Virus record (IMG/VR): IMGVR_UViG_3300034053_000030 | Coordinates: 1-41,699 of that record | Strand: one strand, 5' to 3' | Length of the DNA: 41,699 bases | Source of the DNA: a virus | Taxonomy: Duplodnaviria; Caudoviricetes | Shown: positions 14,375 to 31,958 of the stretch, piece by piece | How positions within the stretch are numbered: the stretch's first letter is position 1 | Layout: each line of letters begins with the position of its first letter | Notes under the pieces: generated by a model | Told to the model about the DNA's origin: nothing | The model's input: only the letters and a program-made list of their open reading frames with translations | The model's database searches: none | Made by a program: the position numbers and the translations under genes

Positions 14375-14402
14375 ATTATACCGGCGGGCGTTTTTCTTGC
14401 AG
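14375..14402 (-). promoter_or_regulatory. putative sigma70 promoter for packaging operon
   Basis: CTGCAA-16-TATAAT, pointing away from the attI-like element. Confidence 0.45.
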
Positions 14403-14515
14403 GGCTTGGCGGCTTAGTTATTTCTCCACAGGTTGACGGGTAAAGGCTTTGCGGTGCATATAACAGATTCCTAATGAGGTTATGCAGCAGTTTTGAGGTC
14501 TACATTGTGTTGGGC
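14396..14515 (+). other. attI-like recombination element, left
   Basis: Ends in GTTATGCAGCAG-N18-GTTGGGC core; aligns without gaps to 31839-31958 (minus). Confidence 0.7.
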
Positions 14516-14938
14516 GTCACGAGAATTCGCCCGTCACGTAATCCCACGTTCCCTCGCCATGACCCACGCAATAGCGCCCGTCGTTGTCGTGTCGTCGCGG
14601 AAACTCGCCGCGCCAAAGCCTGGCGGTAATTGTCAGCTCCATATCCGCAATGGAAACCTTCTCTCCGTATTCGTTGCGGATGAACGCCCCTGGGGCGGCC
14701 CACAGATTGCGCCAGTCGTCCAACGTGTTGATGTTGTCTTCAGGCATCACATGCAACGTGAAACACCAGCCGCCCGAGCTTTTGCCAATATGCAGCGGCT
14801 CAAACGGGCGTCCGCAGCATTCGCAGTCCGGCTTTTGGTGCAGGTAGTAGTTCGTTCCCATTCTCAATCCTTTCCGGGCAGTGACGCCAAACTGTTCATT
14901 TCACCGGACGGCCTTCGGCCGCTCGGTGAATTCCGGCG
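14510..14938 (+). mobile_element. integron-type gene cassette L1
   Basis: Starts G^TTGGGCGTCAC (14509-14520); its attC begins GTGACGCCAAAC (14881-14892), 11/12 complementary. Confidence 0.8.
14517..14861 (-). CDS. cassette L1 gene, hypothetical protein (114 aa)
   Basis: MGTNYYL..CECCG..LHIGKSSGGWCF; AAGGA SD; exactly fills the cassette. Confidence 0.75.
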   Translation of the reverse strand: MGTNYYLHQKPDCECCGRPFEPLHIGKSSGGWCFTLHVMPEDNINTLDDWRNLWAAPGAFIRNEYGEKVSIADMELTITARLWRGEFPRRHDNDGRYCVGHGEGTWDYVTGEFS

Positions 14939-14944
14939 TTGTGC
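14886..14944 (+). other. attC site L1 (59 bp)
   Basis: GCCAAAC-TGTTC-ATTTCACC...CGGCC-TTC-GGCCG...GGTGAAT-TCCGGC-GTTGTGC: R''-5-L''(8)...L'(7)-6-R'. Confidence 0.8.
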
Positions 14945-15299
14945 ACTTTCACTCGTCCCACATGTCGAGGTCAGCGCACACGGCATCCATGCCGGGCCTC
15001 GCCCTGTAGGTACAAAAATCGCCTTCGTGAATCCCGGTCACTTTCCGGTAAGCCTGCCCCGGCAAAATTCGCCACTTGTCGGCTTCGGCAGCCTCAACCA
15101 TCAACCGCTGCTCGCTCGTCTCGCATTCGGCAACAGTGTAGCCAGCGCGTCGCCACTGTTCGCTCGCGTCGCAGCGGTAATGCTTTTTCGCTATCACGAT
15201 CTTGTCGGTAAAAACCCGCTCCATCTCAACCTCCGTGCATAACATTACGGTCGAGGCGACCTGTCGCATAAAGCCGCGCCAGTCGCCTCACCTCCAGCG
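14939..15299 (+). mobile_element. integron-type gene cassette L2
   Basis: Starts G^TTGTGCAC; its attC begins GTGCATAAC (15235-15243), 8/9 complementary. Confidence 0.8.
14949..15224 (-). CDS. cassette L2 gene, hypothetical protein (91 aa)
   Basis: MERVFTDKIVIAKKHYRCDAS...; GGAGG SD; fills the cassette. Confidence 0.75.
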   Translation of the reverse strand: MERVFTDKIVIAKKHYRCDASEQWRRAGYTVAECETSEQRLMVEAAEADKWRILPGQAYRKVTGIHEGDFCTYRARPGMDAVCADLDMWDE

Positions 15300-15305
15300 T
15301 TATGC
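15237..15305 (+). other. attC site L2 (69 bp)
   Basis: GCATAAC-ATTAC-GGT(C)GAGG...CCTCACC-TCCAGC-GTTATGC, with canonical extrahelical base at L'' position 4. Confidence 0.85.
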
Positions 15306-15481
15306 TGCGTTTCACGATCAATCGTCGCCCGCAGCCATTCCGACCCGCCAAGCGCCTTGTAAACCGCTCCCTGGCGTATCCAGATGCGGGCGCATATCTG
15401 CTTTGTGGTCGCCATTGTGGCGCCGTCCTTGGCCTTGTTGCCGCTGTTCTGGCGCTTTCCTCCGCGTTTGGTTGCTGTCAT
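15245..15481 (-). CDS. small putative DNA-binding protein (RGG-R-x-x-G motif, RHH-like); runs into attC L2
   Basis: KRGGKRQNSGNK...YKALGGSEWLRATID. Confidence 0.55.
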   Translation of the reverse strand: MTATKRGGKRQNSGNKAKDGATMATTKQICARIWIRQGAVYKALGGSEWLRATIDRETQHNAGGEATGAALCDRSPRP

Positions 15482-15633
15482 CGAATCACCGCGCGAATCA
15501 CTTTAAGGCTGAACTTCAGTTCGATCAATCGGCCAAGGCTATACGGCACGGTGCCGCCGTTCGCATAAGCCAGTTTGACGATGCGCTTTGCTTCTTTGTC
15601 GGCTTCCGCCTGGCAATCGTAAAACTTGGTCAT
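15478..15633 (-). CDS. hypothetical protein
   Basis: MTKFYDCQAE..., coupled to neighbours by ATGA overlaps. Confidence 0.5.
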   Translation of the reverse strand: MTKFYDCQAEADKEAKRIVKLAYANGGTVPYSLGRLIELKFSLKVIRAVIR

Positions 15634-15827
15634 AACTGCACCACGCTTGCCGGTGTGTTTTGAACGCTTGAACCAGCAGAGCCGGCCCAAAAGGCATACA
15701 AAGCGGCGTCAGCGACGCTAGAAGCAATCGCGGCGGCTTCGGTGCTGAACTTGCCAAGAACAGCCGCGCCAGACACAACACAGAAGCTGCGGCCGATCTT
15801 CTTAACTTCGAGGTTGATGGTGGTCAT
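15630..15827 (-). CDS. hypothetical protein
   Basis: MTTINLEVKK..., AAGGAG SD. Confidence 0.6.
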   Translation of the reverse strand: MTTINLEVKKIGRSFCVVSGAAVLGKFSTEAAAIASSVADAALYAFWAGSAGSSVQNTPASVVQL

Positions 15828-15862
15828 GTTCGCCGCTCCTTGTGTTGTTGTGCTCCGATGCC

Positions 15863-16090
15863 TCAATTATATATCAAGCATTCAGGAGCGCAAGGACTTT
15901 CGTATATATTTTCAAAATACTTTCGCGCACGCCGATCCCGCATACAGCCTCGAAACGCCGCCCGGAGTCGCTTGGCCTCGCCATGGTCGCTCGACTGTTC
16001 GCGCATCAGGGCCAGCCGAGTGCGCGCCTGCTCGCTCCAAAACGCCCGGTTAGCGGCGGCGTCTGTCGATATTGCGTCAAACGTGGTCAT
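15863..16090 (-). CDS. hypothetical protein
   Basis: MTTFDAIS..., ATGA-coupled. Confidence 0.4.
   Translation of the reverse strand: MTTFDAISTDAAANRAFWSEQARTRLALMREQSSDHGEAKRLRAAFRGCMRDRRARKYFENIYESPCAPECLIYN
15866..15893 (-). promoter_or_regulatory. sigma70-like promoter driving small genes and the left cassette genes
   Basis: TTGCGC-16-TATAAT in an AT-rich patch. Confidence 0.6.
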
Positions 16091-16284
16091 GGCTGTTCGC
16101 ATCCCGCGCATTTCGGATCATCCGCCCGCCGGTCGTATTTGCATTCGACACTTCCCCGGTTCTCAATCCGCACCAGTCGGTCAAAGTACCTCCCATCCGG
16201 TAAATATTGCCGGTCGGGGGCGTAGTAACCGGACTGGCGGACCTTGGCCTTGCACGCGGCGTGGTGGTCGGATTGGCCGGTCAT
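16087..16284 (-). CDS. hypothetical Cys-containing protein
   Basis: 65 aa, coupled ORF. Confidence 0.5.
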   Translation of the reverse strand: MTGQSDHHAACKAKVRQSGYYAPDRQYLPDGRYFDRLVRIENRGSVECKYDRRADDPKCAGCEQP

Positions 16285-16493
16285 TTTGGCTTAATCCGCC
16301 ACTCAGCAAACGGAAAAACAGCGTCTGCGCTGTTTCCTCCTGACATTCGCTTTTCGATTAAGCCATTATTAGCGAGTGTGGTTGCTGATGCCGCTGCCGC
16401 GCCGTGTTTTCTTAGCGCCTCATAACAAATCCACCCTCCGCAGTCTGACAAAACATCAATTACCTTTTTTTGTGCCGCTGTCAGTTTGTCCAT
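16281..16493 (-). CDS. small winged-helix-like protein
   Basis: MDKLTAAQKKVIDVL...LANNGLIEK; AGGAG SD. Confidence 0.5.
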   Translation of the reverse strand: MDKLTAAQKKVIDVLSDCGGWICYEALRKHGAAAASATTLANNGLIEKRMSGGNSADAVFPFAEWRIKPK

Positions 16494-16669
16494 TTTTTCT
16501 GCTCCTGTGTGCGTCCTGTATCGGCCATTCGCAGCAACTCGGCGGCGAGGTCCATTGCTCGTTCCCATCCAAAACAAAAAGCGTCAATCTCTGCTTTGCT
16601 TTTGTTCTGGCTATACATCCACTTTTGCAGCGCGATTTCTCGCTCTTGATCTATTCCGTCGTCGCTCAT
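16481..16669 (-). CDS. hypothetical protein
   Basis: 62 aa, coupled ORF. Confidence 0.5.
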   Translation of the reverse strand: MSDDGIDQEREIALQKWMYSQNKSKAEIDAFCFGWERAMDLAAELLRMADTGRTQEQKKWTN

Positions 16670-16932
16670 TTCCCTATCTCCTTAAGTGCATCTGCCCGCA
16701 ACCGATCAGCTGCCGCCTGGCCGCGATGCTTCGCCACCTGAACCAGAAACGCCTTCACGGCCTCGCCGCCTTCGGTTTGATACTTCGCCACTACGGAGCG
16801 GACTTCGCAGGCGTGGCGAAAGTTCTCGACCTGAATAGCGGCTATTGCCTCGGCCTGTTCTTTCGGCAAACCGCCCTCTATTTCGCAAATTGCGGCTCGT
16901 TCGTCGAATATCTCAGCAAATAGATCACTCAT
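16666..16932 (-). CDS. hypothetical protein (FDERAAI-E-EGGL family common after primase genes)
   Basis: EIFDERAAICEIEGGLPKEQAE. Confidence 0.6.
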   Translation of the reverse strand: MSDLFAEIFDERAAICEIEGGLPKEQAEAIAAIQVENFRHACEVRSVVAKYQTEGGEAVKAFLVQVAKHRGQAAADRLRADALKEIGK

Positions 16933-17833
16933 CGGCCCAATCCGTCCCTTCTTTTTCTGGAATTTTAACGCTTACGTCGAAGCCTGCGGCCTTGAGTTTC
17001 TTTGCCAGCGAATAGGCCGACGCCTGTCCGGTAAAAGATCGATCGTTGTCGCCAAAGACCGTTACCCGCTTTACTGTGTCAGGGGGGCGCCATTTCTCCA
17101 TCCCGCCGGCCGTAATCGCTGACCAGACCGGGAATCCGAACTTCCGACATGCAACTAGCGCCGTTTCTATCCCCTCGGCAATTCCAATCTCCTCGCCGGG
17201 ATCACCAATCCGAACCGCCGCGCCGGAAATATCCCCGCCCGCAAGTAGCTTCTTCTGGCTTTCGACTGGCGCCTTGGCTCCTTCTGCGGTCAAGTAGATG
17301 CGATGCACGGCCACGCCTTTACCTTCGGCACTCATCACAACCGCCACCAGCGCAGGATAATGCGTCACCTCGCCATCATCGACATAGGCCAGCGCAGGAT
17401 GAAAGCGGAGCGAGGTAGGAATCACCACCTCGCCCGCTCTTGCGCGGATGTACCGGAACGCCGGGTCTCCTGGCGCGATCCGTATCGAGTCCTGCCAAAT
17501 CTTCTTCACTGCGGCCAACTTCTGCGCGTTCTCTGGCGCTACCGTTTCATTGACAGTCTGCCGAACCACCCCGGCAATCAACTGGACCTCTCGCGCGGCT
17601 TCCTTGAACGTCCAGCCCTTGAACAACTCCAGCAGCTTGTAACCGTCGCCGCTTCCGCATTGGTTGCAAATCCACGTTCCCCGGCTTTCCCGGTCATCGA
17701 ACCGGAATCTGTCTTTTCCGCCACAGATCGGGCAAGGGCCGTGCTTGTTGCGAAGGAACTGCGACTCGATCCCGAACGAGGCCAGCAGTCCCGGCCACCT
17801 GCCTGTGGCAATCTCTGCCGCGCTAGGCCGCAT
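16925..17833 (-). CDS. DNA primase (Zn-binding + Toprim, P4 alpha-like)
   Basis: HGPCPICGGKDRFRFDD, CNQCG, IAEGIETA, GDND, DWAD. Confidence 0.9.
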   Translation of the reverse strand: MRPSAAEIATGRWPGLLASFGIESQFLRNKHGPCPICGGKDRFRFDDRESRGTWICNQCGSGDGYKLLELFKGWTFKEAAREVQLIAGVVRQTVNETVAPENAQKLAAVKKIWQDSIRIAPGDPAFRYIRARAGEVVIPTSLRFHPALAYVDDGEVTHYPALVAVVMSAEGKGVAVHRIYLTAEGAKAPVESQKKLLAGGDISGAAVRIGDPGEEIGIAEGIETALVACRKFGFPVWSAITAGGMEKWRPPDTVKRVTVFGDNDRSFTGQASAYSLAKKLKAAGFDVSVKIPEKEGTDWADE

Positions 17834-19328
17834 GGCGTGCCTCCGCTTCCTTGGCCTTGGCAAAGCGGATAGCCTTCGCCGTGATCCAGTTCTTAGTTTC
17901 CTGCCTCGGCTCGGTCGGAATATCTTTCATCCCGCGCGGCCAGACGCCGAACTTGTCCTTGTAGGCGTGCGCCACCCAACCGTCCGACCGCTTTCCTTTT
18001 AGCGACAGCAGTTCCGAGTAGAACAGTTGTTTCTCTGCCGCCGTCGCCTTGAGTTTGCCTTTCTGCACCAGCGCCAGTTCGCCGTCTATGCTCTCGACGG
18101 TGTTTGGCATCACCTGCTGAAATCCGCACTTCGGACAGATCGCCACTTTCGGCGGCTTGATGCAATGGCATTGCGGGCATTTCTTCGGCAATGCTTCTTC
18201 GGCCTTCGGTTTGGAGGCTTCTTTTGACCGTCCGTCGTCCAACTCAAGCGGCAGGTCGTCAGTCGGGAACCCCAAACGCTGCACCGTGCCGCTGTGGTCG
18301 ATCACCAAGGCGCGTTCTTTTGTCTGGTGGGGGCGAAGTACCCGGCCAATCATTTGAATGTACCTGATGAGGCTTTTTGTCGGTCTAGCGAGGATCATTG
18401 TCCGGCAGGCGGGGAAGTCCCAACCCTCAGTCAGAATCCCGACGTTGCTGATGATCGTCGTTTCGCCGCTTTCAACCCGCGCCAGGATCGCTTTTCGCTC
18501 GTCTTCGTCGGTGTAGCAGTCGATGTGCTCTGCCACCACGCCAGCCGCTCTGAACGATTCGACGATGTGCTTGCTGTGCGCTATGTTGGACGCAAAGCAG
18601 ACGGTCGGCAAGTCTTTCGACAACTTCAGCCAATGCTCGACAATATCGCCGATCAGTTGCGGCTTATCGACCGCGCGGCCCACGTCGGAATCGGCCCAGT
18701 CCATTTCACCGAAGGCGTTTTTGGACTGCTTGATGCCGCTCATGTCCGGCTCAGACGGCGCGTAGATGTCGCAATCGACCAGAAAGTTTTCGTCAATCAG
18801 CGCCTGAATTGAGGTCGCTACGGTCATTTCCTCAAACAGCGGCCCGCCCAATTCTGGATAGTGTTTCCCCATGCCGCGCGCGAACGGTGTGGCGCTCAAT
18901 CCGATCACCGGAACGGCAGACCGCTGAAAGATCACGTTGCGGAAGTCTTTCGATCCAGCTACGCCGTGCGCTTCGTCGATGATGATGATGTCGCAGTCTG
19001 GCATTCCGCGCCGCGCCACCGTCTGGATGCTGCCGACGATCACCTGCGCGTCGATGTTGCGGGTGTTGTCGCCCTGGATGATGCCGTGGGCAATGCCAGA
19101 CCGGAAGAAACGCGCGCTGGCCTGCCCAACGAGGTGAATCCGGTTGCACAGGAAAACGATCCGCTTGCCCTTGGCAATAGCTCCGGCAATTATCGCCATC
19201 GCCATTTCTGTTTTCCCGCTACCCGTAGGCGAGTAGAGCACCTGCCGCTTAACCCCCCTAGCCAAGCAAAAGCGCAACGCCTGAATCGCCCCGCTCTGGT
19301 ATTCCCGAAGGTTGAGAAGATGGCCCAT
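17823..19328 (-). CDS. superfamily 2 DEAD/DEAH helicase with C-terminal Zn ribbon
   Basis: LREYQ, SPTGSGKT, DEAH, SAT, QMIGRVLR, CPQC..CPKC. Confidence 0.95.
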   Translation of the reverse strand: MGHLLNLREYQSGAIQALRFCLARGVKRQVLYSPTGSGKTEMAMAIIAGAIAKGKRIVFLCNRIHLVGQASARFFRSGIAHGIIQGDNTRNIDAQVIVGSIQTVARRGMPDCDIIIIDEAHGVAGSKDFRNVIFQRSAVPVIGLSATPFARGMGKHYPELGGPLFEEMTVATSIQALIDENFLVDCDIYAPSEPDMSGIKQSKNAFGEMDWADSDVGRAVDKPQLIGDIVEHWLKLSKDLPTVCFASNIAHSKHIVESFRAAGVVAEHIDCYTDEDERKAILARVESGETTIISNVGILTEGWDFPACRTMILARPTKSLIRYIQMIGRVLRPHQTKERALVIDHSGTVQRLGFPTDDLPLELDDGRSKEASKPKAEEALPKKCPQCHCIKPPKVAICPKCGFQQVMPNTVESIDGELALVQKGKLKATAAEKQLFYSELLSLKGKRSDGWVAHAYKDKFGVWPRGMKDIPTEPRQETKNWITAKAIRFAKAKEAEARHAA

Positions 19329-19771
19329 TATTCGCCCCCCACAACCAGACGAAGAACTGGAGCAATTTTCGCCTTCTTGGCTAGGGGCTTTTTCTGCCTA
19401 TGTTTACTAACTTCTTGGGTGCAACTGGCTTCACCCGTCTTGGTCGCTTGACGGGTGCTGAAAACTTCACCCGTAGGGGTGCAACCGGCTTCACCCGTTA
19501 GCGCCTGCTCGTTTATGACAATGCCACGTGTCGCGCCGGGCTTTCCTCCTGCCTTGTTAAACAGGCAAACAAGTAGGCCAGACTCAAGCATTTCATTGAC
19601 GATGTATTGCGATTGGCGTTCGCTAATGCCGCATCTTTTAGCGATGAACTTGATTGATGGTGCCGCAGTCCTTGTCTTACTCAGGTCTGCTATCAGCAGC
19701 AAAACAAGCTTTCTGCTTGCCCCGCCGTGATACTTAGCCCAAACAAGCCTATATAGGTCTTTCTTGCTCAT
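19328..19771 (-). CDS. HTH replication initiator-like protein
   Basis: KLVLLLIAD..PSIKFIAKRCGISERQSQ (HTH_36-like); contains internal direct repeats. Confidence 0.65.
   Translation of the reverse strand: MSKKDLYRLVWAKYHGGASRKLVLLLIADLSKTRTAAPSIKFIAKRCGISERQSQYIVNEMLESGLLVCLFNKAGGKPGATRGIVINEQALTGEAGCTPTGEVFSTRQATKTGEASCTQEVSKHRQKKPLAKKAKIAPVLRLVVGGE
19417..19498. repeat. three 22-bp iteron-like repeats (candidate origin)
   Basis: GGGTGC-N6-CTTCACCCGT at 19417, 19453, 19477. Confidence 0.7.
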
Positions 19772-20286
19772 ATGTGCCTCCACGCCTTGCCTGCCTTGAT
19801 ATCAAATACGCAGGAGGCGCTTACGCCATATTTTCCAGCCAACGCAACTAACTGGCCGTGGTAGCTGTTTCCGCTAAATAACTCTCGCTTAATTTCGGCG
19901 ACTGATTCGTCGGTCAGCTTGTGGTTGAAGTGCGACTCGCCACTCTTGGCTCTTCGCAACCCTGTCCTGAAAGCGTGCAAATGGTTTTCAGATTGGCTAA
20001 CCCACTCAAGATTCGATCTGTTGTTATTGCTTTTGTCACCATCTACGTGATTGACTTGTGGCAAGCCGTCAGGGTTAGGAATAAACACCATTGCAACCAA
20101 ACGATGGACGTAAAACGCTGAATTTTTGATCCGCTTCAGCGTTACCGTTCTATATCCAGCGTGTGGAGATTGCGTCATTTCTTCAGTTTTTCCGGTGTTT
20201 CGATAGTTGAATGAAAACACCCTTCCATCAACTGACACGCCGTAATGCTCTTCGTACCCAGGAACGGGAACAATTTCAGGATTCAT
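19768..20286 (-). CDS. NUMOD4-HNH homing-type endonuclease
   Basis: VPGYEEHYGVS..GRV; VHRLVA; VNHVDGDKSNN..NLEWV..EN..H. Confidence 0.9.
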   Translation of the reverse strand: MNPEIVPVPGYEEHYGVSVDGRVFSFNYRNTGKTEEMTQSPHAGYRTVTLKRIKNSAFYVHRLVAMVFIPNPDGLPQVNHVDGDKSNNNRSNLEWVSQSENHLHAFRTGLRRAKSGESHFNHKLTDESVAEIKRELFSGNSYHGQLVALAGKYGVSASCVFDIKAGKAWRHI

Positions 20287-20298
20287 TTTGTTTTTCCC

Positions 20299-20410
20299 AA
20301 AAAAAAAGCCCTAGTCGGAACTCTCACGCTGGTAGCGTGTTGGCGGACTGGTTCGGTACCAGCAGAGTCCCGGCTAGGGCTTACCGAATGATTCCCCCGC
20401 CAAGGGGATG
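20299..20410 (-). ncRNA. C4-antisense-like structured RNA / attenuator 1
   Basis: hairpin with TTGGCG loop, then long stem with multiloop carrying CCGCCAA, closed by T9. Confidence 0.65.
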
Positions 20411-20439
20411 CGCTTCTCACGGCGCGACTACATTTTACA

Positions 20440-20670
20440 TCAAATCAGTTTCTTCTGCTGCGGTGCGCCGATAATCGGAACATCATCGCCGACGTGCTTG
20501 CGGTAAAGTTCAATCAGCCGATCACCAACAGACCACGGCGGGTCTTTAATCTCGTCCCTCGTCATTTTCCTCAAATAGTCCGGGTTGCCGTAATGAATCA
20601 GCCTCGCAACCTGGCGGCAGCTTCCGAAAATTGAGCTTAATTCTAGGATTATTTTTGACCAGTCTGGCAT
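20440..20670 (-). CDS. HTH regulator-like protein
   Basis: MPDWSKIILEL..SCRQVARLI..DPPWSVGDRLIELY. Confidence 0.55.
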   Translation of the reverse strand: MPDWSKIILELSSIFGSCRQVARLIHYGNPDYLRKMTRDEIKDPPWSVGDRLIELYRKHVGDDVPIIGAPQQKKLI

Positions 20671-20767
20671 TATCAAGCCCCAAGTATTTGGCACAAGAAG
20701 GCCCATAACCTAGCCGAAGTGACTCGGCGTCGGTAATGGGTCTATGGCAAAGTTTGCAGCGTGTCAC
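20546..20767 (-). CDS. DUF6011-like Zn-finger protein
   Basis: GTG overlapping MTase stop; CKLCHRPITDAESLRLGYGPSC. Confidence 0.6.
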   Translation of the reverse strand: MTRCKLCHRPITDAESLRLGYGPSCAKYLGLDNARLVKNNPRIKLNFRKLPPGCEADSLRQPGLFEENDEGRD

Positions 20768-22986
20768 AGCCTGCCAATCGGCGCGAACCGATCTTTGATG
20801 TTGGCGATGTTGCCCTTGTAGGCGACAATGATTTTCTGCTCTCGCTTCGGAAACTTGCGGGTGTGCAAGGTCTTTTTCGCGTGCGCCAGGCGGGTAAATT
20901 CGCACTCGACATAAACGATCTGGTTATAAACAGACAGACCATTTTCTTTGAAGAAAACTACAGTTTCAGCTTCGTGGCAATGGTACGCGCCGTTTTTATC
21001 CCGGCTATCGCCGGTCATAACAACGAAAAAGCTGTCGTCCTTCAGGTGCTCGATGGCTTTCTTGTACCCCTTGAAAAGCAAATCCCTGAACTTCTCGTAG
21101 GTGTCAAAAGAGTTCAACTCACCTTCGGGCGGCTTGCCGTCGTAATCGACGTAATGCTCGACTTTGTAATACGGTGGGCAGGTGAAAACCATATCGAACA
21201 TTCCGTCCGGGGCGTGCGTCGATGAGTCGCTTTGCACCCACTTCACGCGCCCGCCAAACTCCGAGCAAATTTTATTGTTCGCATCGGCTTGGTTCTGCCT
21301 GATCTCGCTGGCGTAATATTCATAACCGCAAGCGCCTGCAACGTAGCCCATCTGAACGCCGCCGCCAAACGGGTTATAAACGCGCCCGCCATTTTTGGGC
21401 ATAAACATCCTAGCAATGGTTTCGCATGCAACAGGATCAAGAACCGAGGCATTCCCGTTGTGCGCTTTTGTTGTTGTCTCAATCTCGCCGGCCGCGTTGA
21501 TCTTCTTCTTTGAATTAACGATATTGCTCATGCCTTGCTCGCCTTGCCAGCAGCCTTCGCGAGTTGCATACGATGGGTTTGCCACGCCATTGACTTCACC
21601 GGCCAGGTCAATGCGCTCGCGCCATTCTTTCTTAAGCCGCAGCCAGTCGCCTTTAACCGTGTTCCACACGTTTGTCATGGTGATGTGTGCCAACAATTTG
21701 AGCCGCATCGTTTCGATATCACCCAGAACCATGTAATGAAACCCTGACATTTTCAGATAGGTTACGAAGCCAAGGCTTTCAAAAAGCGCCGGAGTTTCAA
21801 ACTTGCTTTTCGGATCGGTGGTAATCATCGCCGGATAGCCGTAGGTGTTCTGGTCGATCACCGCCTGCACCATTTTGGCGTAGAGTTCCTTGGTGTAAGT
21901 CTTCGGCTCGATCACCGATTGCAGCAGGCAAAATTCCTTCGATTCATGATTCACTTGGAACGTGAAAAATCCGGCGAACTCGCCATTGACCTTGAGGATG
22001 ATGGCCGAGTGAATCTGCATGTTCTTGCGCGCCGCCCGCTTGGCGATATCGTCTTCAATCGCCAGTTTCGACACGCTTTCCTCATACCCAGAACCGATCA
22101 CGCTCGGCGCGTAAATCCATTGGTATTCGTTTTTAATCAGGTCCATCTGCAATGCTGAGTTCATGGTTTCTTCCTTTTTGGGTTGTGTAACTTCAACTCC
22201 GCACTGATCCGGGCAGGCTTCGCACGTCCCGAGATAAATGCCAGCGTTATGTAATGAAACAAACTTCCCACCGCCTACTGCTTCGTCAATTTTCGTTAGG
22301 ATTATTTCTCCTTTCTTGACTCGTTCGTTTGAATTGCTGGCCCGCAATGGATTGTCAATCACGGGATGAATTGATAACAGATAGTCCTGTTTTGCTTTGC
22401 TATTAACTGCCCAATCTGAGTCGCCAAAGGCGCAGGTCACCACACGATTAACGCTCCGCAAACCGGCCACTCTAATGCGCTCAATTTGCCTGAGCCGGTG
22501 CTTCGTTTCGGCTTCGGTATCGAGCGCGCTGGTTGAGGTGTTGATAACCGCGCCAACCGCATGAAGTCGCGCCAGGTGGGCGTCTGTTAGTACCCTCCAA
22601 TGCTTGGTGATGATGACCGGAACCTTGCCTGTTCCGCGCAACGCCTCGCACACAGCAATCGTGTTATCCCAATCGTGAGACGGATCGCCGGCCGTGCCGA
22701 TGCGATACCATGAGGCATGGTGATCGCGCACCGCAATAAACACGTCGGCGCGGTTAATGTGATTGAACAACAGACGAGACACGCTGACCGAGAAGTCGAT
22801 ACCGTATTGATGCGCGGTCTTACTGGCGTAGCACTCTCCGTAGCAACCGCCGTTCGGGTAGCGTTTCATGCCAATGGCGCAACCCTTTACGGTATCCACA
22901 TCAAGTACGCCCTTGGCGTTCTTAACTGCGGTCACCAGCGGCAGGTAATGCCGTTTTGCGTGTTGCTCTCTGCTAAAAAATTCCAT
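20764..22986 (-). CDS. fusion: radical-SAM-like Fe-S domain + GNAT-like domain + amino-DNA methyltransferase
   Basis: GC-x11-CYGECYA, IGTAGDPS, IITKH; GNAT-like middle (FAGFFTF..LFESLGF); NPFGGG motif I and FTCPPYY motif IV; in-frame SD+ATG at 22164. Confidence 0.7.
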   Translation of the reverse strand: MEFFSREQHAKRHYLPLVTAVKNAKGVLDVDTVKGCAIGMKRYPNGGCYGECYASKTAHQYGIDFSVSVSRLLFNHINRADVFIAVRDHHASWYRIGTAGDPSHDWDNTIAVCEALRGTGKVPVIITKHWRVLTDAHLARLHAVGAVINTSTSALDTEAETKHRLRQIERIRVAGLRSVNRVVTCAFGDSDWAVNSKAKQDYLLSIHPVIDNPLRASNSNERVKKGEIILTKIDEAVGGGKFVSLHNAGIYLGTCEACPDQCGVEVTQPKKEETMNSALQMDLIKNEYQWIYAPSVIGSGYEESVSKLAIEDDIAKRAARKNMQIHSAIILKVNGEFAGFFTFQVNHESKEFCLLQSVIEPKTYTKELYAKMVQAVIDQNTYGYPAMITTDPKSKFETPALFESLGFVTYLKMSGFHYMVLGDIETMRLKLLAHITMTNVWNTVKGDWLRLKKEWRERIDLAGEVNGVANPSYATREGCWQGEQGMSNIVNSKKKINAAGEIETTTKAHNGNASVLDPVACETIARMFMPKNGGRVYNPFGGGVQMGYVAGACGYEYYASEIRQNQADANNKICSEFGGRVKWVQSDSSTHAPDGMFDMVFTCPPYYKVEHYVDYDGKPPEGELNSFDTYEKFRDLLFKGYKKAIEHLKDDSFFVVMTGDSRDKNGAYHCHEAETVVFFKENGLSVYNQIVYVECEFTRLAHAKKTLHTRKFPKREQKIIVAYKGNIANIKDRFAPIGRL

Positions 22987-23009
22987 TTGTGCCACAGCGG
23001 AATGCCCAT

Positions 23010-23112
23010 AAAAAAGCCCGTAGATTCCACCCTCTCCTTGCGGAGTTGGCCGACCCACGAGTCATGGGCAGGGTGGAAACTACGGGCTACTCTGAATGTG
23101 CGGCCAAGCACA
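23010..23112 (-). ncRNA. C4-antisense-like structured RNA / attenuator 2
   Basis: TGTGC-TTGGCC-GCACA hairpin, then stem/multiloop with CGGCCAA, T6. Confidence 0.65.
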
Positions 23113-25411: not shown

Positions 25412-25438
25412 TGTCGGGCTCCAATGACTAATAGCTGT

Positions 25439-25531
25439 ATGGTAGCGGCTAATCAATCAATAGTCAATCCCGCCTTGTGATAAAAATTTTCACAAAAAGG
25501 GATTGACTGGGCGGAATTGCTTTGCTAAAGT
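25439..25531. promoter_or_regulatory. divergent early promoters with nested palindromic operators
   Basis: Leftward TTGACT(25462-25467)-17-TACCAT; rightward TTGACT(25503-25508)-17-TAAAGT; inverted repeats AGTCAATCCC/GGGATTGACT and TTGTGA-N9-TCACAA. Confidence 0.8.
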
Positions 25532-25567
25532 TCGATCACTGCAACGCAACTACAAAGGGGAAACGAA

Positions 25568-25723: not shown

Positions 25724-25941
25724 AAGCTGCCCACCATCCGTCACTATTCGCCAGCCGCGCAGCAAGCGATGTGCCCGTGACCAAATACAAACGCGGCCAG
25801 GTCGTATCAGTCGAAGTGGTCGCAGCCGGCACGCTTGAAACGGCCAAGACCGACATCACCCCAAAGCGCGGCCCGAAGCCGAAGAAGCCCGATGCAGCTA
25901 AATTTGCCGAAACCGGCGCTTACCAGTGGAGAGAAGAATGA
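25720..25941 (+). CDS. hypothetical protein
   Basis: ATGA-coupled 73 aa ORF. Confidence 0.5.
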   Translation: MKAAHHPSLFASRAASDVPVTKYKRGQVVSVEVVAAGTLETAKTDITPKRGPKPKKPDAAKFAETGAYQWREE

Positions 25942-26162
25942 ACAACTTACACCCGATCATGGCCCGCGCGCTGAATCCGTTTATTCCGCCGAGACCGTTG
26001 CGCGTCTTTACCGTGTCCATCTCCGGACGCGATCCGCTGAACGTCTTAGCGCCTTCGTCCATGGCAGCGATCAGCCGAGCGATTGAACTGCAATTCTCGG
26101 ATGACGACGAATGCCCGGCAGAGGGGATTTCGATTACTTGCAAGCCGGGCGCGCAATCGTGA
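25938..26162 (+). CDS. hypothetical protein
   Basis: MNNLHPIMARAL...; GGAG SD. Confidence 0.55.
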   Translation: MNNLHPIMARALNPFIPPRPLRVFTVSISGRDPLNVLAPSSMAAISRAIELQFSDDDECPAEGISITCKPGAQS

Positions 26163-26341
26163 AGCGCCTTATTCAATGGATGCGCGACCTACTCGCCGCC
26201 GACCGTCAAACGCTGCTTGATGACCTCCTGCACGAGCGCGAATTGATCCGCGACAGGATCGCCGCGTTTCGACAGGCAGAGGCAGATTGCGAGCGGCGGA
26301 TTCGTTCGGTCCAGCTTCAACTTATCAGGGACGCGAAATGA
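26159..26341 (+). CDS. hypothetical coiled-coil protein
   Basis: GTGA-coupled; KRLIQWMRDLL... Confidence 0.5.
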   Translation: MKRLIQWMRDLLAADRQTLLDDLLHERELIRDRIAAFRQAEADCERRIRSVQLQLIRDAK

Positions 26342-26430
26342 CGCCAGAACGCGAAGCGCAGGTCTGGCGCTGGATCATTCTGTTTCTTGTCGCCGCCTTC
26401 TGGGCGGTCGTTTATTGGGGGCTGGCATGA
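26338..26430 (+). CDS. 30-aa single-TM peptide
   Basis: MTPEREAQVWRWIILFLVAAFWAVVYWGLA; ATGA-coupled at both ends. Confidence 0.55.
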   Translation: MTPEREAQVWRWIILFLVAAFWAVVYWGLA

Positions 26431-26528
26431 AAGACTTTTGGAACGACATTGACTTTATCGAGGGCTGCGTCATTGGCGTTTGCCTGCTGATGATGGCTGG
26501 CGGTGCGATTGCGATGGTGATGCTGTGA
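26427..26528 (+). CDS. 33-aa single-TM peptide
   Basis: MKDFWNDIDFIEGCVIGVCLLMMAGGAIAMVML; coupled at both ends. Confidence 0.55.
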   Translation: MKDFWNDIDFIEGCVIGVCLLMMAGGAIAMVML

Positions 26529-26680
26529 TCCACGATAACCCATACGACGCCGCTGATGAGGCATGGCGCGACGAAGACCTCCGGCAGGCATTGGCCGACC
26601 AAGCGGACGAGGAATACAACGACCGCCGGCAACTTGGCCAGGCTGATGATCTGACCTGTGACGCAACGAAAGGCGAATGA
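26525..26680 (+). CDS. small acidic protein
   Basis: GTG start overlapping stop; IHDNPYDAADEAWRDED. Confidence 0.45.
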   Translation: MIHDNPYDAADEAWRDEDLRQALADQADEEYNDRRQLGQADDLTCDATKGE

Positions 26681-26946
26681 TGGAGATTGACGAACGCGAT
26701 TGCCGGCACGGACTGGCAGACTCTCAGCAAGAACAGGCCGACAAACTGCGTGGAAGCCACATCAAGAGCAACTGGTTCCATGATGCTGGAGCCTATGCCC
26801 GATGCAGCTACTGCGGCCGGTACAGCGACAGCCCGAAGTCTCTTGATAAAGGCGAACATCTGTGCGAATGCGGAAAACTGCACGGATGGACCGGCTCATT
26901 TGCTGCACCAAACAAAGATTCACAATGGAGCGACGCTACTAATTGA
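26677..26946 (+). CDS. Zn-ribbon hypothetical protein
   Basis: CSYCG..CECG. Confidence 0.55.
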   Translation: MMEIDERDCRHGLADSQQEQADKLRGSHIKSNWFHDAGAYARCSYCGRYSDSPKSLDKGEHLCECGKLHGWTGSFAAPNKDSQWSDATN

Positions 26947-27224
26947 CCACCTATTCAGTAGCAATTGACAACGAGGAATCCACGAAAAAGTTTTTTAGCT
27001 ATTACCCTGACGACGGCTTTGAACTGCACGAGACCGAAGACGAGGCGAAGGCCAGAGCGCAGTACGCAATCGACATGTACAGAGACGACGCCATGGAAGG
27101 GTGGGCTGAAGAGGTTGATAGCGTTTGCTGGGGAGAACTTAGGGAATACGCCAAGGAGATTGATACTACAGCAGAGTGTGGCGCTGATTCCTGCGATTTT
27201 CGACTTGCAACTTTTGCGGCCTAA
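26943..27224 (+). CDS. acidic hypothetical protein
   Basis: FFSYYPDDGFELHETEDEA..GWAEEVDSVCWGE. Confidence 0.6.
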   Translation: MTTYSVAIDNEESTKKFFSYYPDDGFELHETEDEAKARAQYAIDMYRDDAMEGWAEEVDSVCWGELREYAKEIDTTAECGADSCDFRLATFAA

Positions 27225-27230
27225 CGCCGC

Positions 27231-27259
27231 TTGCACGATCAACAGGAGTTAGATAGAAT
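27231..27259 (+). promoter_or_regulatory. sigma70-like promoter upstream of RNA element 3
   Basis: TTGCAC-17-TAGAAT. Confidence 0.65.
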
Positions 27260-27265
27260 GGTTTC

Positions 27266-27371
27266 GCGCTTGGCAGCGTACTTTTGGCAAGACCTCAAAA
27301 CCCTAGTGCAGGTGCCAAACCTGTCTGCCAACGCCCGAAAGGGTGACTAGGGTTCTGAGGTCTTTTTTTTT
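27266..27371 (+). ncRNA. C4-antisense-like structured RNA / attenuator 3
   Basis: GCGC-TTGGCA-GCGT hairpin; stem AAGACCTCAAAACCCTAGT/ACTAGGGTTCTGAGGTCTT with CTGCCAA in the multiloop; T9. Confidence 0.65.
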
Positions 27372-27383
27372 GGACTAACAAAA

Positions 27384-27959
27384 ATGGCAAAGAAAAAGCA
27401 AGCAGTCAATCTTTCTGCAATGTGCCGTTTCACAAAAAGCGTTCTTGGTCACTCTGGAAGAATGGGCGTTAGCATTTATGACCTGACCAGCAAGGCGCTA
27501 GAGAAACAAGGCTATTTCAAAGACGGCCTTAATTCAAAACAGCACGTCGTCAAATACTCAACTGTCGTTCTGGCTGAAGTCAAAAAACTAGGCCTCAAGC
27601 CGCAGAAGATAGCGCATAGCGAATCGCCAGCCAAGTCGGCCTATAGCGGTCCCAACGTTACTACTGATGCTTTTCTGGAAAGCTACGAGTGGCGCCGGCT
27701 TCGCATGGAAGCCATTAAGAAATATGGAGCCCGCTGCCAGTGTTGCGGTGCAACTCCGGCCGATGGAATCAAGATCAACGTCGATCACATCAAGCCGCGT
27801 AAGCTGTTCCCGCACTTGGCACTGTCTCTCGACAATCTTCAGTGTTTATGCGGCCCCTGCAATCATGGCAAGGGTAATTGGGACATGACCGATTGGCGTA
27901 ACCGGGAGCCAGAAGACGCATTTCTGTTAGCTCTCGACAAAATCAAATCAAGTGCGTAA
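27384..27959 (+). CDS. HNH endonuclease
   Basis: CQCCG..VDHIKP..NLQCLCGPCNHGK. Confidence 0.9.
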   Translation: MAKKKQAVNLSAMCRFTKSVLGHSGRMGVSIYDLTSKALEKQGYFKDGLNSKQHVVKYSTVVLAEVKKLGLKPQKIAHSESPAKSAYSGPNVTTDAFLESYEWRRLRMEAIKKYGARCQCCGATPADGIKINVDHIKPRKLFPHLALSLDNLQCLCGPCNHGKGNWDMTDWRNREPEDAFLLALDKIKSSA

Positions 27960-28027
27960 GCGGATCATGGAAGACGATGGCGGCATCCAATATTGGCAAC
28001 AACTAGGACAACAAGAGGAATACGAAA

Positions 28028-28711
28028 ATGAGCGACACGACGACAAAGAAAACAGGGCTGGAACTGCTGCGAGATCCTTTCCCGCCCCACCAAATAAGCA
28101 AACTGCCCAAGGGAACAAAGGCGCAGAACGAGTGCCCGGCTTCTGAGAAGGTCAATTGCAAGGTCTGCGGTGGCTGGCATCACCCGCGAATCATTCACCT
28201 TGATTATGTCGGCCATGCGGCTTTGACCGACCGGCTGCTGGATTGTGATCCGAGTTGGAACTGGGAGCCGCTGGCTGTTGGCTCGGATGGTTATCCGGCA
28301 GTCGATAAAGATGGTGGAATGTGGATCAAGCTCACCGTCTGCGGCGTGACCCGCATTGGCTACGGGGACGCGCAAGGCAAGACTGGCGGCAACGCGGTGA
28401 AGGAACGGATCGGCGATGCACTGAGAAACGCCGCCATGCGCTTCGGTGCGGCTTTGGACCTGTGGCACAAGGGCGAACTGCACAAGGACGAACCTGAGCC
28501 GCAAGAGCCTGCCGCGCCGGTCTTTGATGGCTTGGCGTATATCAAGGCAATCAACTCGCAGCTTGATGTTTGCAAAGACGAGGCCGCACTTGATGCCGTA
28601 AAAGAAGCCGCGAAGATCATGTGCGAAGAAATGAACGACCGCCCGACCTATCAAGCAATTCTGGCGCATTACAAGACCTGCCGCGCAAAACTACTGGACA
28701 TGCCATCATGA
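28028..28711 (+). CDS. Rad52/Sak-like single-strand annealing protein
   Basis: LDYVGHAALTDRL..WNWE; KERIGDALRNAAMRFGAALDLW. Confidence 0.8.
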   Translation: MSDTTTKKTGLELLRDPFPPHQISKLPKGTKAQNECPASEKVNCKVCGGWHHPRIIHLDYVGHAALTDRLLDCDPSWNWEPLAVGSDGYPAVDKDGGMWIKLTVCGVTRIGYGDAQGKTGGNAVKERIGDALRNAAMRFGAALDLWHKGELHKDEPEPQEPAAPVFDGLAYIKAINSQLDVCKDEAALDAVKEAAKIMCEEMNDRPTYQAILAHYKTCRAKLLDMPS

Positions 28712-29202
28712 ACCTCTATCAGCTCGCTAATGACTTCACCGAACAGGCTACCAGCCTCGCCGACTTGGACCTTGACGAACAGACCATTGCCGACACCTTG
28801 GAAGGGATGATGTTCCCGGTCGAAGTCAAAGCGACCAACGTCGCCGCCTTCGTGCTGAATCTGGAATCCGACGTGGCCGCGATCAAGTCAGCCGAGGAAA
28901 AGCTCGCCGCCCGCCGCCAGTCCATCGAGAAGCGCGCCAAGCATCTCCGCGACTACCTCAAGTCGAACATGGTCCGCTGCGGCATCTCGGAAATCACCGC
29001 TAATGACAAGACCTTTGCCATCAAGCTGAAGCAGAACCCGGAGTCGGTGAAGGTCGAAGACGAAACCGCGATCCCGGCGTCCTACTTCGTTGAGAAGGTA
29101 TCGCGCTCGCTGGATAAGACGCTGGTCAAGGCGGCTATCAAGAACGGCGCCGAAGTCCCCGGCTGCCATTTAGAGCGCGGGACTCGATTGGAAATCCGCT
29201 AA
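28708..29202 (+). CDS. Siphovirus Gp157-family protein
   Basis: MNLYQLA..; NPESVKVEDETAIP; LDKTLVKAAIKNGAEVPG. Confidence 0.85.
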   Translation: MNLYQLANDFTEQATSLADLDLDEQTIADTLEGMMFPVEVKATNVAAFVLNLESDVAAIKSAEEKLAARRQSIEKRAKHLRDYLKSNMVRCGISEITANDKTFAIKLKQNPESVKVEDETAIPASYFVEKVSRSLDKTLVKAAIKNGAEVPGCHLERGTRLEIR

Positions 29203-29350
29203 TGGTCTGCCTCTTCACCCCCAAGCCAAAGCACCCAAAAGGCCCGCGCTGCGAAGGCATGACCCACCGAGGCCGGCAGCGTTGCCAGTTCGCCGGCAAG
29301 TCGATGGTCGGCGGGAAGTGGGTGTGCCATCACCATGCGAAGGAATCGAA

Positions 29351-29785
29351 ATGAAGAAGCGCGGCGCAAAGATCAAACACAAATACCGTGCCGATCCGCC
29401 CATTGTCCGCACGATCACCGACCAGGCTAATGAAATAGCCATTCGATCAGCCGTGCATGAGCTATTCATGGGCGCTGGCACCGCGCAGACGCTGGACGTG
29501 ATCCTGACGCATCTGCACTTGCTACAGTTTGGCGCCGATGTGAAGCGCGATGAACAGGCGGATACTGTGTGCGAGGTGGCAGGGATTGCGCTCGATGCGA
29601 TCCTTTGCCGGTTCCGCGACACAGGCGAAATCTCAGCCGACGACGAGGAACGCAAGGCGGTCGAAATGCTTGTCTTTGAATCGATCTGCTTCTGGAAACG
29701 GCAGAGCGGCATGACGCGCGATGCCTGCGTCTCGGCGGTCAATGACTGGTACGCACAACTGGAACAGCAACGGGAGGCAGCATGA
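29351..29785 (+). CDS. hypothetical protein
   Basis: AAGGAA SD before MKKRGAK. Confidence 0.6.
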   Translation: MKKRGAKIKHKYRADPPIVRTITDQANEIAIRSAVHELFMGAGTAQTLDVILTHLHLLQFGADVKRDEQADTVCEVAGIALDAILCRFRDTGEISADDEERKAVEMLVFESICFWKRQSGMTRDACVSAVNDWYAQLEQQREAA

Positions 29786-30282
29786 GCCTGCTATCGCTTC
29801 AAGTCGCCTGCCTAATCGGCGCCTATCGTCCGCCCCGTGCAGAAGGAGGGGACATTCATCGTCTTTATGATGAGCCTGATCCTCCTGATCTAGTCGAAGC
29901 CGATTATGCGCCAGAATGTAGGACGGGTTTCAAGGTCTGCAAAACCTGCGGTGAAGAAAAGCCGATTGAAGACTTTTACCATCGCTCTGGCAGGAACTGC
30001 CGCACATCGGTCTGCAAAGAGTGCTACAAGATCGCAACGCGCAAGCGCACGTTAGCAAGACTCGCAGCAAAAGGCGTAGCGCCAGCGCGGAAAAAGTCAT
30101 CTGAAACGAGGCTAAACATCCTCAAGGCTTTAGGGATGGATCGGCTATCAGCAAAAGCTGTTGCGGTAAAGATCGGCATTGACCCGGAGCATTGCCGGCG
30201 CTACATGGACCGACTGACCGACGAGGGTAGGTTGATCAAAGAAGGCTCTTACGGGAGCATCACTTATAGGGCTAAAAGATAA
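29782..30282 (+). CDS. Zn-finger + winged-HTH protein (candidate transcriptional regulator)
   Basis: CKTCGEEKPIEDFY..CKEC; LSAKAVAVKIGID..LTDEGRL. Confidence 0.65.
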   Translation: MSLLSLQVACLIGAYRPPRAEGGDIHRLYDEPDPPDLVEADYAPECRTGFKVCKTCGEEKPIEDFYHRSGRNCRTSVCKECYKIATRKRTLARLAAKGVAPARKKSSETRLNILKALGMDRLSAKAVAVKIGIDPEHCRRYMDRLTDEGRLIKEGSYGSITYRAKR

Positions 30283-30536
30283 TGTGCAAAGAACTGGTAG
30301 ATGCAGCAAAGGCGTTAATCGCTCGATGGGAAACGCCGCTATGGAAGGATGCTCCGGCAACTGCGGAATATATCGATAGACTTAGGCGAGCGGTGGATTC
30401 GCAGCAATCAGCGAAGACCTGCCCGCCATACTGCAATCATGGCAGGGATTGCAACGCACTAGGTCAGGCGAACGGCGTGACCACGATTAACGAAGGCAAC
30501 GGCGCATGTTCCGTTTCGCCTGCAACGGAGGGTTAG
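30282..30536 (+). CDS. hypothetical protein; C-terminus runs through attC R2
   Basis: MCKELVDAAKALIARWETP. Confidence 0.5.
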   Translation: MCKELVDAAKALIARWETPLWKDAPATAEYIDRLRRAVDSQQSAKTCPPYCNHGRDCNALGQANGVTTINEGNGACSVSPATEG

Positions 30537-30538
30537 AA
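30449..30538 (-). other. attC site R2 (90 bp)
   Basis: minus: TTCTAAC-CCTCC-GTT(G)CAGG-CGAAACGG...CCGTTCG-CCTGACC-TAGTGC-GTTGCAA. Confidence 0.75.
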
Positions 30539-30799
30539 GGCATGTGCAAATGCAGAGACTGGTGCCGTGACTGGCGCGAAAGGCAAGGCGGGAAGTACCC
30601 GGCGAGCAACCACGCGCCGGGCTGCGATGAGTACAGGCTGGAAGAGTTTGCCCGTGTTGAGCATGACGGCGCAGCTTGCACGATGGAGCCTGCCGAAGCT
30701 GCTGCGATGGTTGCGGAGAGCGACTGCAAATACACCGTGACGCCGGTATTTTTGACCCGCGACCAGTTCGAGCGCATGGGCGAATTTCATGGGTTCTAA
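30455..30799 (-). mobile_element. integron-type gene cassette R2
   Basis: Starts G^TTAGAA (30800-30794); its attC begins TTCTAAC, a perfect complement. Confidence 0.75.
30542..30799 (+). CDS. cassette R2 gene, Cys-rich hypothetical protein (85 aa)
   Basis: MCKCRDWCRD..HAPGC..; stop TAA inside ttcTAAc core. Confidence 0.7.
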   Translation: MCKCRDWCRDWRERQGGKYPASNHAPGCDEYRLEEFARVEHDGAACTMEPAEAAAMVAESDCKYTVTPVFLTRDQFERMGEFHGF

Positions 30800-30852
30800 C
30801 GCCGGAAATAACGCGCCGCCGAAGGCGGTCGCCGTTGATTGACTTGTTAGAG
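30794..30852 (-). other. attC site R1 (59 bp)
   Basis: minus: CTCTAAC-AAGTC-AAT(C)AACG-GCGACCGCC-TTC-GGCGGCG-CGTTATT-TCCGGC-GTTAGAA; classical 59-base-element layout. Confidence 0.9.
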
Positions 30853-31844
30853 GGCCGACCGTGGCAAACGTGAGACTGACCCAAATTGACGGCGCACTGC
30901 CGAACCTTGCGCTGATGAAGCTGGCGCACTGGCACCGTGCGCGCGGCGATACCGTGACGCTGACGCGGGACATTGACCGCGACCTGTTTGAGCCGGCCTA
31001 TGACGTTGTTTATGGCTCGGCGATCTTCGGGTTTTCGCAGTTGCGCCTGATGCAATTCCAGCGGCAATGGCCGGGCGCCATCGTCGGCGGCAGCGGGACG
31101 CCATACACGCACACGGCTGAAGACCTGATCGGCGGCGAGTACGAACGCCACGACTACACCGACTACCCGGAGGTTGATTACTCGATTGGTTTTACGCAGC
31201 GTGGATGCCGGCTGTCCTGTAAGTTCTGCGTCGTGCCAAAGAAGGAAGGCCGACCGCGCAGCACGAACACGATTTCCGAGATTTGGCGCGGCAAGCCGCA
31301 CCAGAAGAAACTGCATTTGCTCGACAACGACTTTTTCGGAAACCCGGAGTGGCGGGAACGGATCGCCGAGATACGCGACGGCAAGTTCCGGGTTTGCATG
31401 AGCCAAGGAATTAACGTGCGGCTGATCGACGCGGAAGCGGCGGCAGCGCTGGCGACGATTGAATACCGGGACACAAAGTTTCAGGAGCGCCGGCTTTACA
31501 CGGCATGGGACAACCTGCGCGACGAAGCGATTTTTTTCAAAGGCGTGGATATGCTCGAAGCGGCCGGCGTGCCGCCGAAGCACCTGATGGCCTACATGCT
31601 CTGCGGGTATGACAAGACCGAGACATGGGACAGGATTTGGCAGCGGTTTCACCGGATGACGGAGCGCGGGATTGCGCCCTACCCAATGGTGTTCGACAAG
31701 GCACGGAAAGACCTTGTGGCATTCCAGCGGTGGGTAGTAACCGGGCTTTACCGGGCGATCCCTTGGAACGAGTACGAAAGAGCAACGAAGTCGCCGGAAA
31801 GCTCGGCGGCATTTGCGAGGGCGGTCGAACATGCTGCCCTCTAA
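30800..31844 (-). mobile_element. integron-type gene cassette R1
   Basis: Perfect 10-bp inverted ends GTTAGAGGGC (30846-30855) / GCCCTCTAAC (31836-31845) bracket the gene. Confidence 0.8.
30861..31844 (+). CDS. radical SAM protein (cassette R1 cargo)
   Basis: FTQRGCRLSCKFCVVP (CxxxCxxC), LLDNDFF. Confidence 0.9.
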   Translation: MANVRLTQIDGALPNLALMKLAHWHRARGDTVTLTRDIDRDLFEPAYDVVYGSAIFGFSQLRLMQFQRQWPGAIVGGSGTPYTHTAEDLIGGEYERHDYTDYPEVDYSIGFTQRGCRLSCKFCVVPKKEGRPRSTNTISEIWRGKPHQKKLHLLDNDFFGNPEWRERIAEIRDGKFRVCMSQGINVRLIDAEAAAALATIEYRDTKFQERRLYTAWDNLRDEAIFFKGVDMLEAAGVPPKHLMAYMLCGYDKTETWDRIWQRFHRMTERGIAPYPMVFDKARKDLVAFQRWVVTGLYRAIPWNEYERATKSPESSAAFARAVEHAAL

Positions 31845-31958
31845 CGCAAGTTAGTCCGCAGTTCTGCTGCATAACACCATGCGAAACGGCTGATATTCTC
31901 CGCAAAGCATTGTGCCGCAAGCCTGTGGGTAAATAAACGAATCACCAAACCCTGCAAG
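31839..31958 (-). other. attI-like recombination element, right
   Basis: minus: ...GTTATGCAGCAG-N18-GTTAGAG; paralogous to 14396-14515. Confidence 0.7.

Follow-up and report, generated by a model that had tools for sequence, protein, structure and literature searches.

Two attI-type pads with inverted attC cassettes in a tailed-phage genome lacking a recognisable integrase

We analysed a 41,699-nt stretch of tailed-phage DNA (Caudoviricetes; IMG/VR record IMGVR_UViG_3300034053_000030), called the window here in its full length, which carries two small arrays of gene cassettes. Each array opens with an attI-type pad and continues with two cassettes, each bounded by an attC recombination site and each with its gene inverted relative to that site. 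Our reading is that the pads are of a bacterial host type and that the phage probably relies on the integron integrase (IntI) of the infected cell to insert, excise, and exchange the cassettes. The sequence itself shows these sites and matching ones in bacteria, cassette ends that carry the pairing scar, genes that are inverted, and cassettes that recur elsewhere with breakpoints at the R boxes. That host IntI acts on the phage pads in trans is what we infer.

Results

Four attC sites in two clusters

An earlier note on this DNA had proposed four attC sites, and all of them were recovered with the same coordinates and strands. On the left are the attC sites of cassettes L1 (14,886–14,944, plus strand, 59 nt) and L2 (15,237–15,305, plus, 69 nt), and on the right those of cassettes R1 (30,794–30,852, minus, 59 nt) and R2 (30,449–30,538, minus, 90 nt). 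The proposed geometry also held, with a 7-nt R'' box, a 5-nt spacer, an 8-nt L'' box with one extra base (C in two sites, T and G in the remaining two), a hairpin, a 7-nt L' box, a 6-nt spacer, and an R' box starting with GTT. Because this loose box pattern did not discriminate (10 candidates in the window versus ~ 5.6 per simulated genome), we built a covariance model from 22 attC sites, all from bacterial loci. The four sites were its top four matches with exact coordinates and strands (E = 1e-10, 1.2e-5, 4.5e-4, and 7.6e-3; next match, E = 1.3), although calibration was short and these E-values are rough. The attC of L1 has long blocks in common with a bacterial attC in locus L382. Only the attC of L2 folds far better than its shuffles (z = -5.2, versus -2.2, -2.2, and -1.0 for the others), and Rfam returned no match.

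IntegronFinder, as described in passages of PMC9024848, defines attC clusters lacking an integron integrase (CALINs) as groups of two or more attC sites that have no intI beside them. The window contains two such clusters of two sites each, as called with our own covariance model. CALINs are proposed in the same passages to be degraded integrons; the intact end pairing and the attI sites of the phage arrays would speak against simple decay. At both arrays, the upstream genes (15,245–15,481, minus; 30,282–30,536, plus) read into or through the distal attC, whose hairpin lies within their coding sequence.

Two paralogous pads of the attI type

The left pad (14,396–14,511, plus) and the right pad (31,958–31,843, minus) had been called paralogous, and this was confirmed by a gapless alignment with 77 of 113 positions identical, against a background best of 48 (mean 28, standard deviation 4.6). 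In the left pad the repeat GTTATGCAGCAG lies at 14,479–14,490 and the core GGTCTAC at 14,497–14,503, and the crossover is predicted at G14509|T14510. In the right pad it is predicted at G31845|T31844, and the core GGACTAACTTGC is divergent. The label "attI-like" was upheld for the left pad, both by a matrix of bacterial sites and by a core common to IntI-adjacent bacterial attI sites; for the right pad it comes from homology to the left pad and from position.

The left pad has TTTTGAGGTCTAC in common with the IntI-adjacent attI of L398 and matches a solo site in L316 at 25 of 33 positions in register. A related core, GTCTACTTNRC|GTT, ends four unrelated phage arrays. An exact scan of bacterial genomes for one version of this core gave 19 matches. 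Three of them (L305, L308, and L312), in three genomes, lie 87–130 nt upstream of a divergent, intact IntI scoring above the TIGR02249 cut-off; ten have a same-strand attC downstream, and several are solo copies without intI.

For an unselected test, we used 30 IntI loci from the family of genome G005 (which, from its genus name, we take to be Rhodocyclaceae), where IntI is present in 134 of 251 genomes. The attI matrix was learned from 25 of these loci, the other five being left out for a low leave-one-out score. Among the retained rows, three come from class 1 integrons and had been anchored on an incorrect GTT, and ranks are given with and without them. The same core type dominates this set of IntI-adjacent regions. 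On the matrix, the left pad ranks 2 of 1311 GTT sites in the window, and the array ends of L278, L279, L280, and L284 rank first, each in its own locus. The crossover anchor was validated by the bacterial first cassettes, 9 of 12 of which pair 7/7 at it.

Pattern searches for the pads were also run more widely. In viral contigs, the short pad motif gave 120 loci of ~ 610 estimated, none pad-like or heading an array, and the longer pattern gave 42 loci, one of which (L280) was real. All 7 metagenome loci were chance matches, as were all matches to named phages. A crude scan for a Pc-type promoter detected no consensus promoter within the two pads. A promoter-like signal with TATAAT at its end (14,340–14,400, minus) begins within the left pad, in its distal end, and is directed into the terminase operon. 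A TTAT-N-CCACAGG motif, presumably DnaA-box-like, lies 83–84 nt upstream of the crossover in both pads (14,415–14,435, plus; 31,940–31,920, minus) and in the L280 pad (near 7130); it was noticed in L365 as well. Solo attI copies of the pad type were observed without intI in bacterial chromosomes (L303–L309 and L313–L318), several with cassettes, and one genome had at least three near-identical copies.

Cassettes with inverted genes

The left array consists of cassettes L1 (14,510–14,938, plus, 429 bp) and L2 (14,939–15,299, plus, 361 bp), and the right array of R1 (30,800–31,844, minus, 1045 bp) and R2 (30,455–30,799, minus, 345 bp). As had been proposed, the start of each cassette complements the R'' box of its own attC, at 7/7 positions in both right cassettes and 6/7 in both left ones. 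In a set of 49 cassettes that includes these four, pairing of the variable R-box bases amounts to 3.53 of 4 positions, versus 1.97 ± 0.13 when shuffled, and is perfect in 35.

The earlier note was silent on gene orientation, and we found that all four cassette open reading frames (ORFs) run antisense to the direction of attC and attI. The L1 gene (14,517–14,861, minus) encodes a phage protein of 114 amino acids (aa) with a weak match to phrog_12436, 18 viral relatives, and Atlas neighbours that are mostly viral clusters, while the L2 gene (14,949–15,224, minus; 91 aa) matches phrog_13613 (E = 1e-21). R1 carries a phage radical-SAM-family gene (30,861–31,844, plus; 327 aa; phrog_9298, weak PF04055, Atlas) with its stop at the crossover, and R2 an 85-aa gene (30,542–30,799, plus). 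Both right-hand genes end in a TAA that is the complement of the crossover (in R2, of the R' TTA), and purine runs resembling ribosome-binding sites overlap the site at its R'' end. Relatives were found for the antisense frames, and the competing sense ORFs have no PHROGs match. A 457-codon frame antisense to the right-hand genes (30,459–31,832, minus) has no family match, is broken in L198, and is probably a shadow frame.

The arrangement of a complete integron, sense genes with attC at the gene 3' end, is thus absent here. Counting longest ORFs is a weak test of orientation (34 of 49 antisense), so orientation was judged by homology. When 31 phage loci were oriented by a gene they have in common, attC matches appeared in 9, and 52 of the 53 matches were antisense to the strand of the query gene. 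Bacterial first cassettes are mostly conventional (sense ORF longer in 10 of 12), and the published TJE1 CALIN is conventional by the same covariance model.

Recurrence of cassettes in other phages

The earlier proposal of cassette exchange is borne out by recurrence across unrelated phages, with breakpoints at the R-box crossover: all four cassettes were found elsewhere with new neighbours, bounded at R boxes. L1 (94% identical in L284), L2 (98% aa identical in L280), and R2 (78% aa identical in L417) each sit among different neighbours in a longer inverted array. At the DNA level, L1 is 84% identical to its copy in G652/L284 over 14,509–14,940, and the homology of R2 to the L417 array spans 30,520–30,803. 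R1 has the same 3' end in L198, L199, and L200, where identity stops at the junction; the pad follows here and different attC sites follow there. Terminase and endolysin relatives (58 and 19 loci, at most 64% identical) had no arrays, and 7 of them were rechecked with the covariance model. Homologs of L2 were also seen beside collapsed att remnants, with two R boxes 5 nt apart in L281 (near 4960–4990) and no hairpin in L282 (near 230).

The twin layout itself recurs in an unrelated phage, G652 (38.4 kb, terminal repeats, 100% complete, no PF00589). There, seven attC sites on one strand follow the recombination genes, and a single attC on the opposite strand follows the replication genes. The two G652 entry sites rank 1 and 2 of 1963 on the attI matrix; at the second sits a methyltransferase cassette, inverted and with matching ends. 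Only 7 of the 61 window proteins are found in G652, L1 at 94% identity and the other six at 27–51%, and L1, a left cassette in the window, sits in the opposite arm there, within the right array. Upstream of the core the two G652 pads are unrelated (34/113), and twin pads can therefore arise independently. Among five array-bearing virus records searched whole, a second, opposite array was found only in G652, the other four having a single array. The attI core did not stand out at the array ends examined in G653 and G655, and PF00589 was found in none of three complete array-bearing phage records.

Phage-like cassettes in bacterial integrons

The first cassette beside the IntI-adjacent attI of L382 is perfect at its ends and contains two antisense ORFs (712–1327), one of which matches phrog_35913, a family with 103 database relatives. 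Similar antisense, phage-looking first-cassette ORFs were observed in L386 (2719–3063), L399, and L378, with weak or no family match.

Genome setting and recombinase searches

The phage contig is circular, with 41,572 bp, a 127-nt end overlap, and 56.8% GC, and encodes terminase, portal, capsid, head, tail, lysis, and replication modules. The circular form and the 127-nt terminal repeat agree with the earlier description of a complete genome; the CheckV completeness estimate, 53%, puts a caveat on that description. The lack of a recognisable tyrosine recombinase was likewise supported, since profile searches in six frames gave no match to PF00589, TIGR02249, or PF00239 at E ≤ 10. These searches thus found no tyrosine recombinase, integron integrase, or resolvase in the window, and no intI remnant; no intI gene adjoins either array, as a complete integron would have; and none of the 63 ORFs compared with PHROGs was an integrase.

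Both early arms diverge near 25.5 kb, where ORF orientation flips and a divergent promoter-like pair was found (25,439–25,531; consensus promoter scan), from which the arms run outwards. The mirror symmetry claimed for the two arrays holds in topology and fails in distance, the pads lying 11.0 and 6.4 kb from this region. The left array comes after another promoter-like signal, near 15.9 kb, a putative TTGCGC-N16-TATAAT (15,860–15,895, minus) seen by eye and below the consensus-scan threshold, upstream of three small ORFs reading into the array. Elsewhere in the window, a 764-aa protein (20,764–23,058, minus) has a C-terminal DNA methyltransferase domain and ~ 500 unassigned N-terminal residues.

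Origin of the radical-SAM cassette

Of 80 viral loci from the radical-SAM family, only 3 carry attC sites. In a 36-protein tree (midpoint rooted, with short rows or those below 55% identity left out), the four cassette copies group with the attC-less L201 in a single clade (100/97), nested within ordinary phage genes. The pattern is consistent with a phage gene having become a cassette once, with one loss afterwards, although the tree does not settle the direction.

Copies of one cassette were compared for their attC interiors in phage arrays (L278, L280, L198, L279, and the window cassettes). L2 and its copy in L280 are 92% identical from the R'' box onward, while the hairpins score 0.48 (background 0.40 ± 0.14). 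A 98% cassette duplicate within L278 carries two different hairpins, and other pairs score 0.63–0.73. L278 also reuses near-identical attC interiors, with three different genes sharing them. If the top strand occasionally recombined at R'', interiors would be exchanged and end pairing preserved; annealing-protein recombination would be the alternative.

Discussion

How the arrays may work

IntI is established to be SOS-induced and to prefer the folded bottom strand (passages of PMC8946536). In the mechanism we propose, the arrays would lie at the downstream ends of early transcription units with attI facing against transcription, and each cassette would be read as attC, ribosome-binding site, gene, and stop on the strand that folds as the recombinogenic bottom strand. 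The inverted orientation changes how such an array would be expressed: an incoming cassette would be placed at the end farthest from the promoter and transcribed by read-through from the phage promoter, with no need of Pc. Conventional host cassettes, which are often anti-phage, would be antisense and silent after entering a phage pad. The phage-side cassette pool would be built from ordinary phage accessory genes, be common to phages of beta- and gamma-proteobacteria, and occasionally deliver a cassette into a host chromosomal integron.

A broader version of this picture is possible, and we offer it tentatively as the less probable of the two. Tailed phages of beta- and gamma-proteobacteria may possess a mirror-image integron system, with host-type attI sites at operon ends, hijacked host IntI, and an inverted-cassette pool of their own, drawn from ordinary phage genes; such cassettes would be expressed in the phage but stay silent in the host. 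In that case the radical-SAM family would be the birth of a cassette caught in the act, and use of both attC strands would reshuffle hairpins between genes.

Points that weigh against reliance on host IntI

Several observations count against reliance on host IntI. On the bacterial attI matrix, the right-pad core comes no higher than 231 of 1311 (106 without the class 1 rows), which is why that pad is assigned by homology and position, and the top matrix match in the window (3068) is intragenic and has no attC. The longer two-box pad pattern gave 2 matches in 401 genomes, fewer than its reversed control (9). No bacterial counterpart of the whole left pad was found in the 251 genomes, where 5 weak matches were seen, none with attC by the pattern scanner. 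A search of the same 251 genomes, run without a positive control, did not find the R1 protein or the L2 family. Searches of viral contigs and metagenomes, and of terminase and endolysin relatives, found no close relative with different content at the same pads. Terminase and capsid relatives were uninformative about the host. Neither recombination nor an excised circle nor an empty site was observed in this sequence analysis. Copies of a single cassette often have different attC interiors, a pattern not predicted if only the bottom strand recombines. Finally, the phage encodes an annealing protein, NinB, NinG, and Gam, which could swap genes at short homologies.

In the strongest alternative, the att sites are genuine fossils: arrays assembled once by IntI, then moved between phages by annealing-protein recombination at short attC or R-box homologies, with the pads now inert. 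The divergent core of the right pad, the 6/7 pairing of the left cassettes, and the attC interiors uncoupled from their genes in several pairs would all fit, as would the annealing protein and Nin genes, the hairpin-less remnants beside L2 homologs in L281 and L282, and the nesting of the attC-less L201 among cassette copies. We nevertheless consider it unlikely, given that independent copies have their boundaries at the R-box junction, 35 of 49 cassettes retain perfect end pairing, a top-ranked attI core ends four unrelated arrays, and pad spacing is gapless over 113 nt in both pads.

It is less probable still that the arrays are active through another enzyme, either the IntI of co-infecting phages or prophages or a Xer-like host recombinase. 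G654 does carry a tyrosine recombinase, but the pad core is the one that accompanies canonical chromosomal IntI, an enzyme often present in the candidate host family, and none of the three complete array-bearing phage records has PF00589. That the hairpins are transcription or RNA-processing signals resembling attC by chance, with the pads as duplicated promoters, seems very improbable: it would suit the finding that no more than one site in four folds far better than shuffles, and the promoter-like signal abutting the left pad, but not the exact covariance-model matches, the end pairing, the attI core identity, or the cassette-bounded homology. We retain host IntI acting on host-type pads as the preferred explanation.

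Relation to known systems

Phage-borne CALINs and integrons have been published by Qi, Rajabal, Ghaly, Tetu, and Gillings in 2023 (PMC9892861), and passages of that paper report that IntI1 recombined five of six phage attC sites. As in the window, those CALINs are intI-less attC clusters with phage-type cargo such as methyltransferases. One prophage CALIN described there (Shewanella M16-3) has its own attI, like the pads here, but M16-3 is a cryptic prophage that also carries intI; in TJE1, three attC sites and the ORFs are on one strand, whereas all the cassette genes here are antisense. The passages of PMC9892861 consulted do not describe inverted genes, twin pads, or host IntI acting in trans at a phage attI.

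The sedentary chromosomal integrons of beta- and gamma-proteobacteria, including solo attI sites, have the same attI core, attC type, and end-pairing scar as the phage. They differ from the phage arrays, which have no intI, carry antisense genes, have no demonstrated Pc, and end a phage operon. The attI1 site of class 1 integrons (from L374) has a repeat, GTTACGCAGCAG, that matches GTTATGCAGCAG of both pads at 11 of 12 positions; the distance from repeat to crossover is 18 nt in the phage pads versus 20 nt in attI1, and the simple-site core differs. Insertion of cassettes at attG sites, secondary sites in the genome, as reported in passages of 10.1101/2022.09.11.507474, is likewise an action of IntI outside the integron, but the attG consensus given there is only GWT, while the phage entry sites are full attI-type sites with ordered arrays.

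Our literature search turned up no report of phage cassettes in inverted form or of phage attI pads lacking an integrase, though the supplementary CALINs of PMC9892861 may hold inverted cases and most subscription papers fell outside the search. New here are the link of the pad to host attI sites beside IntI, the recurrence of the twin layout with one cassette changing arms, and the reverse cassette in a host integron.

Conclusions

The layout of these phage arrays would offer a site-specific route for the turnover of phage accessory genes, and it gives a reason for standard tools to file such arrays as decayed CALINs. The bacterial loci also yield a usable attI consensus for a host group in which, according to passages of PMC9024848, attI is poorly described. 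Gene families known both as plain phage genes and as cassettes bear on the origin of cassettes, and a mirror-image system, if true, would make that origin directly testable. Integrons are increasingly recognised as bacterial libraries of anti-phage genes (passages of 10.1101/2024.07.02.601686). Our results suggest that phages may exploit the same integron enzyme for themselves, the two gene pools being kept apart by orientation.

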